NCBI RefSeq assembly: GCF_057098645.1
Contig: NZ_CM169472.1
Length of the DNA: 64,000 nucleotides
Strand: one strand, 5' to 3'
A program made the position numbers and the translations under genes. Below the pieces are notes generated by a model. That model was not told the origin of the DNA. It was given only the letters and a program-made list of their open reading frames with translations, and did not search any database. The stretch's first letter is position 1; the number at the start of each line of letters is the position of its first letter. Below, piece by piece: positions 2,105 to 16,982 of this stretch.

Positions 2105-2417
2105 GCTACGCCTCTGTTAAAAATGTTAATCAATGTTAAGTGAGGTAACAATAGCAAACTTGTACGAAATATGTGTACAGAATGATAAATTAATTTTTTG
2201 CAATTAGTGCTAATGCATATAAAACAATACGTTATGATAAAACATATTGCATCATTTAACTGACAACCTATACAAAAATTTTCGCCAACTCGTGTTCAAC
2301 TTTTTCCATTTTTTATCAATGTAAAGAAACAGTTATGTTTTGGTATTAAAAGAAAGACACCGGAAGATATGTCTGTTACCGTCTTACTCTCGCCTCTCCC
2401 ATTACCCTGGACAGTTA

Positions 2418-3683
2418 ATGCTTACCACCCTTATTTATCGTAGCCATATACGTGACGACGAACCTGTCAAAAAAATCGAAGAAATGGTTTCGATAGCAAA
2501 TCGCAGGAACATGCAGTCTGACGTAACAGGGATCTTACTGTTTAATGGTTCTCATTTTTTCCAGCTTCTGGAAGGTCCGGAAGAACAGGTTAAAATGATA
2601 TATCGGGCTATATGCCAGGATCCACGGCACTATAATATTGTTGAGCTGCTGTGCGATTACGCGCCTGCTCGCCGTTTTGGCAAAGCGGGAATGGAATTAT
2701 TTGATTTACGCCTGCACGAGCGAGATGACGTTTTACAGGCCGTATTCGACAAAGGCACATCAAAATTTCAGCTAACTTATGATGACAGAGCGCTACAATT
2801 TTTTCGTACTTTTGTCCTTGCAACCGAACAATCAACCTATTTCGAGATTCCTGCTGAAGACTCCTGGCTTTTTATCGCTGACGGATCTGATAAAGAACTT
2901 GATTCCTGTACCCTTTCACCAAATATAAACGACCACTTTGCCTTTCATCCTATTGTTGATCCCTTATCGCGGCGGATAATCGCTTTTGAAGCCATTGTGC
3001 AAAAAAATGAAGACAGCCCGTCAGCTATAGCAGTTGGGCAGCGTAAAGACGGGGAAATCTACACAGCGGATCTCAAAAGTAAGGCGCTTGTATTCGCGAT
3101 GGCACACGCACTTGAGCTCGGTGATAAAATGATATCTATCAATCTATTACCTATGACCCTGGTTAACGAGCCTGACGCAGTCTCTTTTTTACTTGATGAA
3201 ATAAAGGCCAATGGTCTGGTGCCTGAACAAATCATCGTTGAATTTACTGAAAGTGAAGTCATATCTCGGTTTGATGAGTTTGCCGAAGCGGTTAAATCGC
3301 TAAAGGCTGCCGGTATCAGTGTAGCAATTGATCATTTTGGCGCAGGTTTTGCTGGTTTGTTACTCCTGTCACGCTTCCAGCCTGACAGAATTAAAATCAG
3401 TCAGGAATTGATTACCAATGTTCATAAAAGCGGACCACGGCAGGCAATTATTCAGGCGATCATAAAATGCTGTACATCACTTGAAATTCAAGTCTCTGCT
3501 ATGGGCGTGGCAACACCAGAAGAGTGGATGTGGCTTGAATCCGCAGGAATTGAGATGTTTCAGGGGGATCTGTTTGCTAAAGCTAAATTGAATGGTATCC
3601 CTTCAGTTGCGTGGCCAGAAAAAAATAATTTTCAGCACATGATTTCAGTAAATCATCGTGAAAATGAATACGTTATGTTTTAA
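2418..3683 (+). CDS. bluF: BluF (YcgF), BLUF-EAL blue-light sensor / BluR anti-repressor
   Basis: Protein from MLTTLIYRSHIRDDEPVKKIEEMVSIANRRNM... matches K-12 BluF; start taken at internal ATG 2418 of the 2340 ORF. Confidence 0.85.
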   Translation: MLTTLIYRSHIRDDEPVKKIEEMVSIANRRNMQSDVTGILLFNGSHFFQLLEGPEEQVKMIYRAICQDPRHYNIVELLCDYAPARRFGKAGMELFDLRLHERDDVLQAVFDKGTSKFQLTYDDRALQFFRTFVLATEQSTYFEIPAEDSWLFIADGSDKELDSCTLSPNINDHFAFHPIVDPLSRRIIAFEAIVQKNEDSPSAIAVGQRKDGEIYTADLKSKALVFAMAHALELGDKMISINLLPMTLVNEPDAVSFLLDEIKANGLVPEQIIVEFTESEVISRFDEFAEAVKSLKAAGISVAIDHFGAGFAGLLLLSRFQPDRIKISQELITNVHKSGPRQAIIQAIIKCCTSLEIQVSAMGVATPEEWMWLESAGIEMFQGDLFAKAKLNGIPSVAWPEKNNFQHMISVNHRENEYVMF

Positions 3684-3822: not shown

Positions 3823-4554
3823 GTGGCTTATTACAGCATTGGTGATGTTGCTGAACGTTGCGGGATTAATCCTGTCACTCTCCGGGCCTGGCAACGCCGC
3901 TACGGTTTGTTAAAACCACAGCGCAGTGAAGGCGGACACCGACTCTTTGATGAAGAAGACATACAACGTATCGAAGAGATCAAGCGTTGGATAAGTAATG
4001 GCGTCCCTGTAGGCAAAGTTAAAGCATTACTGGAAACCACCAGCCAGGATACGGAAGATGACTGGAGCCGCTTGCAAGAAGAGATGATGTCAATTCTTCG
4101 TATGGCTAATCCTGCCAAACTACGCGCGAGAATTATTTCACTGGGTCGAGAGTACCCAGTAGATCAATTGATTAATCATGTTTACCTTCCTGTTCGCCAG
4201 CGTCTCGTGCTTGATCACAACACCTCCCGCATTATGAGCAGTATGTTTGACGGCGCACTAATTGAATACGCAGCAGCCTCGCTTTTCGAAATGCGCCGTA
4301 AGCCCGGTAAAGAAGCCATTCTGATGGCATGGAATGTTGAAGAGAGAGCACGATTGTGGCTGGAAGCATGGCGTTTATCATTGTCAGGATGGCACATTTC
4401 TGTTCTTGCTGATCCCATTGAATCGCCGCGCCCGGAACTGTTCCCGACGCAAACATTGATTGTCTGGACAGGCATGGCACCAACGAGAAGGCAAAACGAA
4501 CTTTTACAACACTGGGGTGAGCAAGGTTATAAAGTCATCTTTCATGCCCCCTAA
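3823..4554 (+). CDS. bluR: BluR (YcgE), MerR-family repressor
   Basis: N-terminal Mer[36 protein letters not shown]; synteny. Confidence 0.85.
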
Positions 4555-4774: not shown

Positions 4775-5179
4775 ATGGATCAGGTCGTTGTTTTTCAAAA
4801 GATGTTTGAGCAAGTGAGAAAAGAGCAAAACTTCTCCTGGTTTTATTCAGAATTAAAACATCACCGTATTGCACATTACATTTATTATCTGGCTACGGAT
4901 AACATCAGAATTATTACTCACGATGACACGGTTTTGTTATTAAGAGGAACCAGGAACCTGTTAAAAGTTAGTACGACCAAGAACCCTGCTAAAATAAAAG
5001 AGGCCGCATTGCTTCATATTTGCGGAAAATCTACATTTCGGGAATACTGTTCAACACTGGCAGACGCGGGCGTTTTCCGTTGGGTTACTGATGTTAATCA
5101 TAACAAACGCAGTTACTACGCCATTGATAATACGCTTTTATATATTGAAGATGTAGAAAATAATAAACCATTAATCTAG
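4775..5179 (+). CDS. ycgX: YcgX (DUF1398 family, 134 aa)
   Basis: Synteny and size; protein resembles K-12 YcgX. Confidence 0.7.
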   Translation: MDQVVVFQKMFEQVRKEQNFSWFYSELKHHRIAHYIYYLATDNIRIITHDDTVLLLRGTRNLLKVSTTKNPAKIKEAALLHICGKSTFREYCSTLADAGVFRWVTDVNHNKRSYYAIDNTLLYIEDVENNKPLI

Positions 5180-5874
5180 CTAAAGTTGGATGCTTAAGAA
5201 ATGCTTCATAATTCAGTAAGGCATTAGCATAATGGGAATAAAAGTACAGAGACTATCCCTATGGATGATAAATACTGTCCTTTTATTGCTACCCATAAAT
5301 AATCACCAGGCCAATACTATCAAATTGATATTTGAAATGTGATCACTTGACTTTCTATACGTTATTTTATAACGGTTAACATATTTATAAAACCAACGGG
5401 CGTGCCATACGCCCGTTTTAATACTTAACGCACATGTGTTTTGGTTTAGTCATCATCCAGTTATATGTATTTTAGCCAGGAACAGGTTAAACCTTTCCTA
5501 TATAACTCAAAAATTGAAACCTTATTCTCATGTCATGCTTATATTCATTATTATCGTTATATAAAAAGGCAACCATAATGTTTAGCAAATTGGCACAAAG
5601 TAGCATAAAGGCGATGTTTTAATTACAGGATGTTCAGTCATTTGAATGTATAACATTATAGCTAAACAAATCTAAAACGAAGTGAATAATTTATTGTTTT
5701 CACTAAATCTCATTTTGTTTAACATCCATTGAGATTCCTTGCTTTAAATTTTGTTTTATATAAGCAATCGTTTTAATTAATTTATTTTTTGAAGGGGTAA
5801 TATACTCATATGCAAAATAAAGAAATGAACATCCAAATGAACTATATTAAATACCGTGGGATAAGACATAACAA

Positions 5875-6198
5875 ATGAAGTGGGTAGTAATTGACACGGT
5901 CATTCAACCTACATGCGGCATATCTTTTTCAGCCATATGGGGTGATATGAAAATGATCATCTGGTATCAATCTACTATATTTCTTCCTCCTGGAAGTATA
6001 TTTACACCTGTTAAGCCTGGTATTATCCTTAAGGATAAAGAATATCCTATTACTATTTATAACATTGCGCCATTCAACAAGAATTTATGGAGTTTACTCA
6101 AAAGCAGTCAAGAGTGTCCTCCAGGAGAAAGCGAAATAACAAATAAATGTTTGCATAAGAGTTGTATTATAAAAATATGCCCATATGGGCTCAAGTAA
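5875..6198 (+). CDS. iraM: IraM, anti-adaptor protecting RpoS from RssB (107 aa)
   Basis: Protein [41 protein letters not shown]... about 90 percent identical to recalled K-12 IraM; AT-rich context. Confidence 0.8.
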
Positions 6199-6300
6199 TA
6201 GGTTTTATATAAATATGCTCGATATGCTATTAATAATATCCACATAAATAAAACAACGGGCGTGTTATACGCCCGTTTAAATATTTAACACATGTAGAGA

Positions 6301-7551
6301 TTACATGTTCTTGATGATCGCATCACCAAACTCTGAACATTTCAGCAGTTTAGCGCCTTCCATCAGACGTTCGAAGTCATAGGTTACGGTCTTCGCGTTG
6401 ATTGCGCCTTCCATACCTTTAACAATCAGGTCAGCCGCTTCAGTCCAGCCCATATGGCGTAACATCATCTCAGCAGAGAGAATAATAGAGCCTGGGTTAA
6501 CTTTGTCCTGACCGGCATATTTCGGCGCAGTACCGTGGGTAGCTTCAAACAGGGCGCATTCGTCACCGATGTTTGCGCCAGGGGCGATACCGATACCGCC
6601 AACCTGCGCTGCCAGGGCGTCAGAAATGTAGTCACCGTTCAGGTTCATACAGGCGATAACATCATATTCAGCCGGACGCAGCAGGATCTGTTGCAGGAAT
6701 GCATCAGCAATCACGTCTTTAATGACGATCTCTTTGCCGGTATTCGGGTTTTTAACTTTCAGCCACGGGCCGCCGTCGATCAGTTCACCGCCAAACTCTT
6801 CACGCGCCAGCTGGTAGCCCCAGTCTTTAAACGCGCCTTCGGTGAACTTCATGATGTTGCCTTTGTGCACCAGAGTCACAGAGTCACGATCGTTAGCAAT
6901 TGCGTATTCGATCGCTGCACGAACCAGACGTTTGGTGCCTTCTTCCGAACACGGCTTAATACCGATACCACAATGTTCCGGGAAGCGAATTTTCTTCACG
7001 CCCATCTCTTCACGCAGGAATTTAATCACTTTCTCGGCGTCGGCAGAGTCAGCTTTCCATTCGATACCCGCATAAATGTCTTCCGAGTTTTCACGGAAGA
7101 TAACCATATCGGTCAGTTCAGGGTGTTTAACCGGGCTTGGGGTGCCCTGATAGTAACGTACCGGACGCAGGCAGGTGTAGAGATCCAGTTCCTGGCGCAG
7201 GGCAACGTTCAGAGAGCGAATACCGCCACCAACCGGAGTGGTCAGCGGGCCTTTAATGGCAACGCGATATTCACGAATCAGATCAAGGGTTTCAGCAGGC
7301 AGCCAGACATCCTGACCATAAACCTGTGTGGATTTTTCACCGGTGTAAATTTCCATCCAGGAGATTTTACGCTCGCCTTTATAGGCTTTCTCGACTGCAG
7401 CGTCGACCACTTTCAGCATGGCTGGGGTTACATCTACACCGATTCCATCACCTTCAATGTAAGGGATAATCGGATTTTCAGGAACGTTGAGTTTGCCGTT
7501 TTGCAGGGTGATCTTCTTGCCTTGTGCCGGAACAACTACTTTACTTTCCAT
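6301..7551 (-). CDS. icd: Isocitrate dehydrogenase (NADP), 416 aa
   Basis: Protein [45 protein letters not shown]...; full-length with native 3-prime end, no e14 junction. Confidence 0.95.
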
Positions 7552-7722: not shown

Positions 7723-8376
7723 ATGCGGCAATTCATAATCTCTGAAAATACCATGCAAAAAACTTCTTTTAGAAATCACCAGGTTAAGCGATTCAGCTCG
7801 CAACGTTCTACCAGGCGTAAACCTGAAAACCAGCCCACGCGTGTGATCCTGTTCAATAAACCCTACGATGTTCTTCCGCAGTTCACCGATGAAGCCGGAC
7901 GCAAAACATTAAAAGAATTCATCCCGGTTCAGGGCGTTTATGCAGCAGGTCGTCTTGACAGAGATAGCGAAGGATTATTGGTGCTGACCAATAATGGTGC
8001 ACTACAGGCGCGTTTAACCCAGCCAGGCAAACGCACTGGAAAAATCTATTATGTGCAGGTGGAAGGCATTCCCACACAAGACGCACTTGAAGCCTTGCGC
8101 AATGGCGTAACCTTAAATGATGGCCCTACCCTGCCCGCCGGCGCGGAGCTGGTTGACGAACCCGCGTGGTTATGGCCGCGGAATCCACCAATTCGTGAAC
8201 GCAAAAGTATTCCCACCAGCTGGCTGAAGATCACCTTATATGAAGGACGTAATCGCCAGGTGCGCCGCATGACCGCCCATGTTGGTTTCCCCACGCTGCG
8301 ACTGATTCGTTATGCGATGGGTGATTACACTTTGGATAATCTTGCTAATGGCGAATGGCGAGAAGTGACAGATTAA
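7723..8376 (+). CDS. rluE: 23S rRNA pseudouridine(2457) synthase RluE
   Basis: RsuA/RluE family motifs ([17 protein letters not shown]); synteny next to icd. Confidence 0.85.
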
Positions 8377-15320: not shown

Positions 15321-16982
15321 TTACACCCCGCTAAATTCTTCCAGTTTCTGGCGGTGGCTGTCGCTTATATCAAAAGCAAAATCCTCATGCTCTGCCTGGA
15401 ATGTACCAAACGCCATCAGCGCCGCCACGCTCGGGTCTATCTTGTTCGGTGATTTTTTCTTGTTCGGCTTGATATTGGCGTTCGCGTCACTCTGCATCAC
15501 GACGTTACTCATCGACCAGGACAACACCGGATCGCTACGATGCACAATCACCCTGCGGTTAACAAAAACTTCGAACGATTTCGCCGCCGGACTGAATCTG
15601 AGGTAGGTTTGCGGGAACGGCTCCACCTCAAAGCCTGCCCCCTGTAATTGCGTCCTGAGATGCGTGGCGTTCCACGTATCAAAGCCCACCAGCCTGATAT
15701 TAAATTTCTCCGCATCCTGCATGATGTCATCTCTGATCCGGTCGTAATCAATGCAGTCACCTGGCGTTGTGCGTATCCAGCCCGCTTTAGCCCACTGGCG
15801 ATAGACAGCGCGGTTTTTATTGGCGGGGTTCTGTAGCTGGAACTCCGGCAGATAATGACGGGAAACCAGCATGATATTTTTACCGACCGGAAAGGCATAG
15901 CACACGCTGGAAATATCGCTGGTTGATGATAAGTCCAGCCCCGCGTAACACTCCTGCCCGTGTAAATCTTCCTCCGTGAACGTTCCGGCACACTCAGCCC
16001 ATGCGCCGTTACCCATCCACGGGGTAGCCCCCTGGCACCAGATATTAAATCGCTTTGTCATCATCTCCACCCATTGCGACGGAATACCCCGCGCTTTCTG
16101 GATGGTTGAGGCCAGTTTTTCACGATCCACGGAAACATCGATGTTAGGGTTAGCCTTTATCCACATCGCCGGATCATCAACCTCGTTTTCGTCGTCCAGT
16201 TCGTAAATCAGTACAAAAATTGAATCGTTGACCTCTTCGCCGTCCAGGATCTGGCAGCAATAATCATAGTGCTGCTTACAGGCTGAAACGACGTTACTGC
16301 CCGATGTGGTAATGGCAAATAACAGCCCTTCGGGACGTGCGCCCATCCCCAGCTCAAGCGCGGAATAAACGCCGTTATCGGGGTGTAGGTGGTATTCGTC
16401 CACGATGGAAAGGCTTGGGTTTGTGCCCTCGATGGTTGCCGCTTTTGCTGCCAGCGGCTTTAACAGGCTGTTGCTTTTCGGGTGCATCACCTTGTGGGCC
16501 TGAATATTCACCCGCCTGCGTAACGGTCGGGATAAAAGGCACATCTGACGCGCATCATCAAAAACGATCCGCGCCTGGTCACGGCTCACCGCTGCGGTGT
16601 AAATATCCTGCTGCCCGTTCTCCATAATCAGAAACCAGTTAGCCAGAATCGCGGCGGTCGTGGATTTCGCATTTTTGCGCGGCACTTCGATAAAGGCGCT
16701 CGTGTATTTGCGCCGTCCGGTGGCCTTAACCTTAAAGCCGAGGATGCACGCAAAGGCGAACTGCTGCCACGGCTCCAGCTCAATGGGTCTGCCACGCATC
16801 GGTCCTTTTACGTGCGGGCACACCCTGGAAAAGGCAATAAACCGCTCCACAACCTCACGATCGAACGTGTAAAGGGGGCTTTTAAGGTCCGAAAAGTACC
16901 GTTTAACAGCCTGTTTTAACCGTTTACAGGCCGGAATTTTGCCCGTTTTTACGTCTTCTGCGTACTTATTCCAGGCGGTCAA
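15321..16982 (-). CDS. terL: Terminase large subunit (553 aa)
   Basis: Size and position after TerS; ATPase and nuclease regions typical of phage TerL. Confidence 0.85.
   Translation of the reverse strand: MTAWNKYAEDVKTGKIPACKRLKQAVKRYFSDLKSPLYTFDREVVERFIAFSRVCPHVKGPMRGRPIELEPWQQFAFACILGFKVKATGRRKYTSAFIEVPRKNAKSTTAAILANWFLIMENGQQDIYTAAVSRDQARIVFDDARQMCLLSRPLRRRVNIQAHKVMHPKSNSLLKPLAAKAATIEGTNPSLSIVDEYHLHPDNGVYSALELGMGARPEGLLFAITTSGSNVVSACKQHYDYCCQILDGEEVNDSIFVLIYELDDENEVDDPAMWIKANPNIDVSVDREKLASTIQKARGIPSQWVEMMTKRFNIWCQGATPWMGNGAWAECAGTFTEEDLHGQECYAGLDLSSTSDISSVCYAFPVGKNIMLVSRHYLPEFQLQNPANKNRAVYRQWAKAGWIRTTPGDCIDYDRIRDDIMQDAEKFNIRLVGFDTWNATHLRTQLQGAGFEVEPFPQTYLRFSPAAKSFEVFVNRRVIVHRSDPVLSWSMSNVVMQSDANANIKPNKKKSPNKIDPSVAALMAFGTFQAEHEDFAFDISDSHRQKLEEFSGV

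Follow-up and report, generated by a model that had tools for sequence, protein, structure and literature searches.

How did the anti-adaptor gene iraM come to lie beside the 3' end of icd, bracketed by two copies of one terminator-like hairpin, in a chromosome with no prophage at icd? We addressed this question in a window of 64,000 nucleotides (the whole stretch of DNA analysed, from contig NZ_CM169472.1 of assembly GCF_057098645.1), which is 100% identical to E. coli O145 strain RM9872 and whose relevant features are collected in Table 1. The first-pass annotation had described the e14 attachment site as unoccupied, and this holds, as icd is intact, iraM is separated from it by a gap of 102 bp and no prophage is found at icd. 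The AT-richness that it ascribed to the iraM segment was also recovered, with a GC content of 29.9% over 5439-6240 versus 50.4% for icd, and 31.5% versus 53.2% GC at third codon positions of iraM and icd. Upstream, the product of ycgX belongs to Pfam DUF1398 (E=1e-47).

Table 1. Features of the icd-iraM region, in window coordinates.
Feature	Position	Strand	Remarks
bluF	2340-3683	+	
bluR	3823-4554	+	
ycgX (DUF1398)	4775-5179	+	Outside T(d); common to iraM-positive and iraM-negative genomes
ymgL	5232-5342	+	Outside T(d); common to iraM-positive and iraM-negative genomes
Flank on the ymgL side of T(d)	5348-5381	.	Like the TTTTGATAA repeats beside the e14 terminator copy (local alignment)
T(d), distal orphan copy of the module	5380-5438	-	Hairpin 5395-5417, CC loop variant
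Segment between T(d) and T(p), 802 bp	5439-6240	+	ymgK, iraM promoter region, iraM, iraM 3' flank
ymgK	5578-5622	+	Within the T(d)-T(p) segment
iraM (anti-adaptor of RssB; PmrD-like family PF11183)	5875-6198	+	RefSeq annotation
T(p), proximal copy of the module	6241-6297	-	Hairpin 6255-6277, then GUUGUUUUAUUU on the icd strand
Terminator plus last ~165 nt of icd	6248-6464	-	Surrogate gene end of icd-integrating phages
icd (NADP isocitrate dehydrogenase), intact, prophage-free	6301-7551	-	ORF list and RefSeq annotation
rluE	7723-8376	+	

A terminator hairpin duplicated around iraM

The two direct copies of a hairpin repeat that had been noticed around iraM were confirmed. The repeat search returned a single family of direct repeats, with copies of 43 nt at 5390-5432 and 6250-6292 that are 86% identical and start 860 nt apart, and gapped BLAST extended it to 5380-5437 against 6241-6295, with 48 of 58 aligned positions identical, 3 gap positions and E=1e-10. 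The hairpin pattern AACGGGCGTGNNATACGCCCGTT is present at just two places in the 64 kb, those of T(d) and T(p), with 0.00 occurrences expected from 100 shuffles. Within the window, the homology between both copies ends 2-4 nt short of the icd stop codon.

Both copies were called terminator-like on the minus strand, which is the strand of icd and not that of iraM. The terminator scan gave for each of them a 9-bp stem with 6 GC pairs, a 5-nt loop and a tail (GTTTTATTTA and GGTTTTATAA), whereas the plus strand of both lacks a U-tract that would qualify and gave no call. When folded as RNA, T(p) reached -20.7 kcal/mol (z=-4.4) and T(d) -17.1 kcal/mol, and both hairpins of the window fold well on either strand, at -17 to -21 kcal/mol. 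T(p) lies 57 nt past the stop codon of iraM, on the other strand, and starts 24 nt past the stop codon of icd. This short distance, together with the hairpin found downstream of icd in Citrobacter and Enterobacter, which shares the outer stem AACGGG...CCCGTT and differs in its interior, leads us to predict that T(p) is the native intrinsic terminator of icd. As for T(d), there is no annotated minus-strand gene between 5438 and 6240, and the copy follows ymgL on the plus strand.

A scan against Rfam returned sub-threshold chance matches only (for example, tpke11 with 21 bits against a cut-off of 43). A transposon or MITE with target-site duplication was considered and rejected, as the repeat search found no terminal inverted repeats bounding 5439-6240 and the 58-nt repeat of the module is only 83-86% identical. 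In strain WCHEC040047, the inner stem and loop of T(p) (L101, 2586-2608) are inverted with respect to all other copies (GCGTATAACACGC versus GCGTGTTATACGC), which looks like a structure-preserving "flip" of the hairpin.

The icd end in phages and iraM as phage-type cargo

The module is not restricted to the chromosome, as window positions 6248 to 6459-6464 are matched by approximately 26 genomes of lambdoid phages. The matched unit comprises the terminator and the last ~165 nt of icd and ends in a shared crossover region near CATATGGCG. Its left edge, 6248, is also the left edge of the homology between T(d) and T(p) (6241 gapped, 6250 ungapped). In phage 21, int and three arm-type sites precede a hairpin that is identical to T(p) and carries the annotation of a terminator. 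An ICDH-like pseudogene comes next, and both terminator and pseudogene sit beside attP and int. The identical hairpin and the coincident left edge liken the window to the attP region of phage 21 and of 21-like prophages such as the sitABCD element of B2 strains. The difference is that the YYTTCCCCAAAA arm sites are absent beside T(p), where the 3' flank of iraM is found instead; the 57 nt between iraM and T(p) contain neither an int gene nor arm motifs of the 21 or e14 type.

K-12 shows the module in three nested copies. There, e14 separates icd from icdC, a fragment of 168 nt that abuts T(p) and iraM. Within e14, the surrogate icd 3' end is followed directly by its own diverged hairpin, AACGGGAGCGTTACGCTCCCGTT (L005, 16060), and the complete order is e14 terminator, e14, icdC with T(p), iraM, T(d) and ymgL. 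The gene iraM is thus outside e14, being located beyond icdC in K-12 and present in our window without e14, in contradiction to the IraL paper, where it was placed "on the e14 prophage" (PMC4045071).

The outer side of T(d) also has a resemblance to e14. The flank on the ymgL side is similar, in register, to the region of three TTTTGATAA repeats by the e14 terminator (L005, ~16015-16052), and in local alignments of e14 or e14-like flanks with the chromosomal flanks of B2 and K-12 strains, 0-3 of 3,000 shuffles reached the score. The window's own allele of the flank is a weaker match to that of e14 (38 of 3,000), and the similarity extends to the single copy of B2 strains. No similarity of this kind was detected in the same alignments for the flank of phage 21 or that of T(p). 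The ycgX-ymgL side may be a still older e14-like layer, or e14 may have captured its flank from a chromosome.

Among the matches listed in the scan of a genome collection with Icd, the only close relatives were E. albertii, two Citrobacter, two Enterobacter and Superficieibacter, most of which have a prophage at icd, and none of them provided a clean outgroup. In E. albertii, every context returned (L104 and L106-L111) had icd, a phage 21-type terminator, an integrase fragment and a decayed prophage (with Q antiterminator, IS1 and NleG), and lacked the bluF-ycgX block. In O157:H7, a prophage with int/xis of the phage 21 type sits directly at icd (L119, 3572-4940), and searches of the whole genome for ymgL, T(d) and iraM gave no match at megablast sensitivity.

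Outside this locus, every relative of iraM whose surroundings were examined belonged to a lambdoid prophage and was placed between Q or stx2 and the lysis genes. These relatives are alone-standing morons (self-contained accessory genes) on the strand opposite late transcription, with 55-73% protein identity. Chromosomal iraM resembles lambdoid-phage morons, of which the iraM homologues by stx2 in Stx phages and the DUF1398 genes between lysis and terminase are examples, in being small, AT-rich and alone on its strand. It differs in that no phage genes flank it, and the phage-borne relatives, which fill the slot between Q and lysis, share with the window only the ORF (71-74% nucleotide identity), with no hairpin in their flanks. 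A prophage integrated with int next to icd would have iraM on the strand that it occupies here, which alone is a one-in-two coincidence. The neighbouring ycgX has a paralogue, 70% identical, in an E. albertii prophage, between the lysis and terminase genes; relatives of YcgX in E. albertii and "Escherichia sp." were discarded as orthologues, being paralogues at other loci.

None of 50,697 phage records contained iraM and the icd module together, and the IMG/VR contigs with both were rejected as chromosomal edges of prophage predictions. The Pfam scan of the IraM protein gave no match, the assignment to PF11183 (PmrD) being a precomputed one, and a pattern search for a PhoP box upstream of iraM gave no useful signal, with 95 loose matches across the window. 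The prophage homologues of iraM, the GC content given above and, in the MFDS1022581 lineage described below, an IS3 remnant in the island, with trkG and e14-like arms after it, indicate a phage or other mobile origin for the segment between the copies.

Occurrence of the two copies across E. coli

The first-pass annotation had named, as a refutation of its reading, the presence of the duplicated hairpin in all E. coli regardless of iraM, which would indicate an ordinary conserved terminator pair. This is not the case, and the reading is not refuted. Two copies with iraM were counted in 3,864 of 5,426 complete E. coli genomes, while 1,036 have ymgL, exactly one hairpin and icd sequence but no iraM, with the breakpoints inside the repeat. 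The one-copy junction consists of the left flank of T(d) and of T(p) from the loop onward, the switch occurring within a shared stretch of 11 nt, CAACGGGCGTG. With respect to the B2 genomes, the indel amounts to 860 bp, that is, the 5439-6240 segment and one copy of the repeat. One-copy strains include CFT073, UTI89, 536, S88, Nissle 1917, ATCC 25922, the type strain and ST131, and we take all the identifiable ones among those listed to be phylogroup B2.

Two exceptions to this near confinement to B2 were found, GPEC606 and EcN_Sk. In GPEC606, an IS200C is located beside the single hairpin. The insertion sequence lies directly on the ymgL side of the hairpin in two backgrounds, AR_0067, which has iraM, and GPEC606, which does not (L120, ~672-1383, and L002, ~2705-3420), which reflects either a hotspot beside the hairpin or one insertion in a common ancestor, with iraM deleted afterwards. 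EcN_Sk (NZ_CP172017.1; L121, 6123-9324) is a hybrid genome labelled Nissle that has the K-12 protein alleles of bluF, bluR, ycgX and ymgL, and after ymgL a single hairpin, a K-12-type icdC, no iraM and then the Nissle sit prophage. When a synthetic junction for the deletion between T(d) and T(p) of K-12 was used as a query for recent deletions in phylogroup A, EcN_Sk was the sole exact match (225/225); its junction could stem from hybridisation in the laboratory, from repair of a heteroduplex or from an error of assembly. As one-copy junctions are nearly confined to B2, deletion between both copies is rare.

The distal copy has been subject to decay. Its hairpin is intact in lineages E and F and in the WCHEC040047-type lineage. 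In K-12, a central base pair is broken (AACGGCCGTGCCACACGTCCGTT) and the minimum-energy fold lacks the stem. A deletion of ~435 bp in the GCA_009898965.1 lineage (L112, ~5455) takes out the ymgL-like region together with T(d), and strain 980-2 (L103, 873-3048) has ISKpn26 between ymgL and iraM, where no T(d) hairpin was found. These are two independent losses of the copy.

In the window, no remnant of icd coding sequence was detected next to T(d), as 1,766 of 2,000 shuffles scored as well. The situation is different in the MFDS1022581 lineage, a deep-branching group of 17 complete genomes labelled E. coli, whose bluR-ycgX segment is ~95% identical to that of the other strains compared; among themselves, these other strains reach 98-99%. 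Here T(d) is followed by a colinear spacer and TTAACATATTCTTGAT, where the end of icd reads TTACATGTTCTTGAT; none of 2,000 shuffles reached this score, and BLAST placed the match adjacent to T(d) on icd. T(d) in this lineage retains a remnant of the icd stop codon and ~15 nt of coding sequence, and was probably once attached to an icd end. The island between T(d) and icd (L118, 9637-14979) contains, in this order, an IS3 remnant, a ymgK-like region, an additional gene of the YmgB/AriR family (a ymgB/ariR paralogue) upstream of iraM, iraM itself, trkG (a Rac-prophage gene in K-12), an unassigned ORF of 455 aa, e14-like arm sequence and another copy of the terminator before icd. Its iraM has 80% nucleotide identity, and the island as a whole is 75-80% identical to that of the window, versus ~95% for the bluR-ycgX flank.

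Modules have also been exchanged piecewise. In ST648, the terminator and icd-end module is 97% identical to that of phage 21 and the iraM-side flank is kept, while the icdC module of ST131 is 96% identical to the e14-like one and the ymgL-side flank is kept. As both modules are mosaic with their chromosomal left flanks preserved, joints at the terminator must have formed repeatedly, and this mosaicism agrees with what is known of icd, whose 3' end is replaced as phages integrate and are lost. ST648 has in addition two genes, of the STM2901 family and DUF1493, between icd and rluE (L117, 5379-6163) that are absent from the window.

Whether B2 lost the iraM segment or never had it was judged from the divergence of the lineages. 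Phylogroup F is commonly placed beside B2. ST648, which belongs to phylogroup F (PMC8339308), has both copies of the module and iraM. The iraM segment is 5-7% diverged among the E, A, F and WCHEC040047-type lineages, and the adjacent ymgL spacer has diverged about as much among all lineages, B2 included. In the local comparison of bluR-ycgX, B2 is the most divergent (basal) lineage of E. coli proper. The single copy of B2 looks like T(p) and not like T(d), which fits both a deletion and a terminator that was never displaced and remained under selection. We infer, by about two to one, that B2 lost the segment. The two copies in ST648, the similar divergence of the segment and the ymgL spacer, and the presence of T(d) and iraM in the more distant MFDS1022581 lineage all argue for a loss. 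The basal position of B2 in the flank comparison argues against it, as does the MFDS1022581 island, whose divergence greatly exceeds that of its flanks, so that it could be an independent acquisition. E. albertii is uninformative on this polarity, since its bluF-ycgX block is absent and a decayed 21-like prophage follows icd.

Origin and meaning of the duplication

We propose, with a probability of roughly 0.6, that T(d) is an earlier terminator of icd, displaced by an iraM-carrying element that integrated in icd, and that B2 strains lost iraM through recombination between both copies. Elements that integrate at the icd 3' end (e14, phage 21 and their relatives) bring a surrogate for the last ~165 nt of icd and its terminator, so that every integration shifts the previous icd end and terminator outward and leaves direct repeats. 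T(p) would be the terminator that now serves icd, and T(d) that of an earlier icd end. The displacing element, most likely a lambdoid prophage that entered by the route of e14 and phage 21, would have carried iraM and since decayed to ymgK-iraM, with the displaced icd coding fragment beside T(d) deleted and the integrase and arm sites once beside T(p) also lost. The shared module would then act as portable homology, recombination between the copies dropping the intervening DNA and leaving a single copy. The B2 genomes that lack iraM most likely arose in this way. Since T(d) of the window has no icd remnant, the proposal needs two deletions that ended near the edges of the module, and the lack of phage genes, integrase and arm-type sites between T(d) and T(p) counts against it. 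So do the restriction of the phage similarity to the iraM ORF, the lack of iraM together with the icd module in any of the 50,697 phage records, and the rarity of deletion between the copies. Of the two origins suggested at first pass, past recombination at the icd 3' end, with the repeats as its footprint, has the stronger support, as icd-integrating phages carry the module and T(d) of MFDS1022581 retains the icd remnant. The other, an inserted cassette, stands loosely in the sense of foreign DNA, as we found no sign of a cassette-type mobility mechanism.

A different route to the same arrangement would be the recombination of an iraM-bearing circle, itself with a diverged icd terminator, in the left stem CAACGGGCGTG, with icd uninvolved and B2 as the ancestral empty site. 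The one-copy junction of B2, with the left flank of T(d) and T(p) from the loop, is what an empty site predicts, the homology in the window does stop just before the icd stop codon, and the divergence of B2 in bluR-ycgX allows a gain after the B2 split. We nevertheless consider this route unlikely, as a terminator-only target does not predict that T(d) of MFDS1022581 reaches ~15 nt into icd coding sequence. Moreover, ST648, of phylogroup F, and the more distant MFDS1022581 both have T(d) and iraM, and an iraM segment as diverged among lineages as its flank argues against a late spread. No recombinase or circular form is known for such an element, and the only documented mechanism at the site crosses over inside icd.

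Explanations without an icd-targeting element fare worse. That the hairpin was simply duplicated locally and selected as a bidirectional end for ycgX-ymgL and iraM, with no mobile DNA, appears improbable to us, even if the hairpins fold well on both strands (-17 to -21 kcal/mol), T(d) follows ymgL and T(p) follows iraM on the strand of those genes, and the E, F and WCHEC040047-type lineages have kept an intact T(d) hairpin. The terminator scan called both copies on the minus strand alone, their plus strand having no qualifying U-tract, and T(d) is broken in K-12, deleted in the GCA_009898965.1 lineage and not found in 980-2; the icd remnant, the AT-rich phage-related cargo and the phage-borne copies would also be left unexplained. 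Still harder to credit, and very improbable, is a dispersed family of hairpin repeats (REP/BIME-like, an IS200/IS605-type palindrome element or an integron attC) with iraM as a passenger. The location of IS200C beside the hairpin in two backgrounds does indicate that it attracts at least one hairpin-dependent element, but the 64 kb contain two copies only, across E. coli the matches map to icd or to fragments of it, with a median of 1-2 places per genome, Rfam gave no match and the unit contains neither an integrase nor a Y1 transposase. IS200/IS605 elements excise seamlessly, unlike the empty site observed here, which keeps one hairpin.

The displacement of an icd end, as we propose it for T(d), has a known counterpart in the attL/attR duplication and icdC of e14 in K-12, as relayed from Hill, Gray and Brody (1989) by PMC6379469 and bioRxiv 10.64898/2026.06.14.732165. 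Both cases share the locus and the module (icd 3' end and terminator), direct repeats that flank foreign DNA, and the loss of the intervening DNA via recombination between copies. They differ in that our outer copy keeps the terminator part only (58 nt versus about 230 nt) and that the iraM layer lacks an integrase and phage structural genes. This layer is also old, 5-7% diverged among phylogroups, and lies outside e14, being found in e14-free genomes. Occupied and one-copy empty forms, as in an attachment-site duplication, are both present (3,864 versus 1,036 genomes). The repeats of icd 3' end plus terminator are represented by the terminator, with the icd part absent from T(d) of the window and ~15 nt long in MFDS1022581, and no tyrosine integrase with arm sites was found by the gene-proximal repeat. 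The duplication of tRNA and tmRNA 3' ends in tandem island arrays is similar in that the element supplies a replacement 3' end and displaced ends stack as direct repeats that record the order of arrival, although the target here is a protein-coding gene with its terminator instead of an RNA gene. The locus is an older, eroded case of the known e14/icdC phenomenon and not a new mechanism.

A wider and more tentative idea, to which we give a low probability, is that the whole region downstream of icd is a readable stack of integrations, each layer consisting of cargo and a displaced terminator and the terminator module being the recombination joint. The layers would be ycgX-ymgL, with remnants of e14-like arms, and T(d); ymgK-iraM and T(p); and the e14, 21-like or sit elements, and the joint would add, swap or remove them. 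If this were true, the presence or absence of IraM, a stabiliser of RpoS, across phylogroups would be set by recombination at a terminator hairpin, and the hairpin at the joint would be the one that also attracts IS200C.

The understanding of how icd-targeting phages work is unchanged by these results, whose use lies in annotation and in the history of iraM. They correct the record, as iraM is outside e14 and in an older, separate layer, and they suggest an origin for this PhoP-controlled regulator of RpoS stability as phage-type DNA captured at the icd integration hotspot. They also offer a sequence-level account of the absence of iraM in B2 strains such as CFT073, UTI89, Nissle and ST131. 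Finally, displaced terminators can outlive the coding part of an attachment-site duplication and may in this way mark very old integrations.
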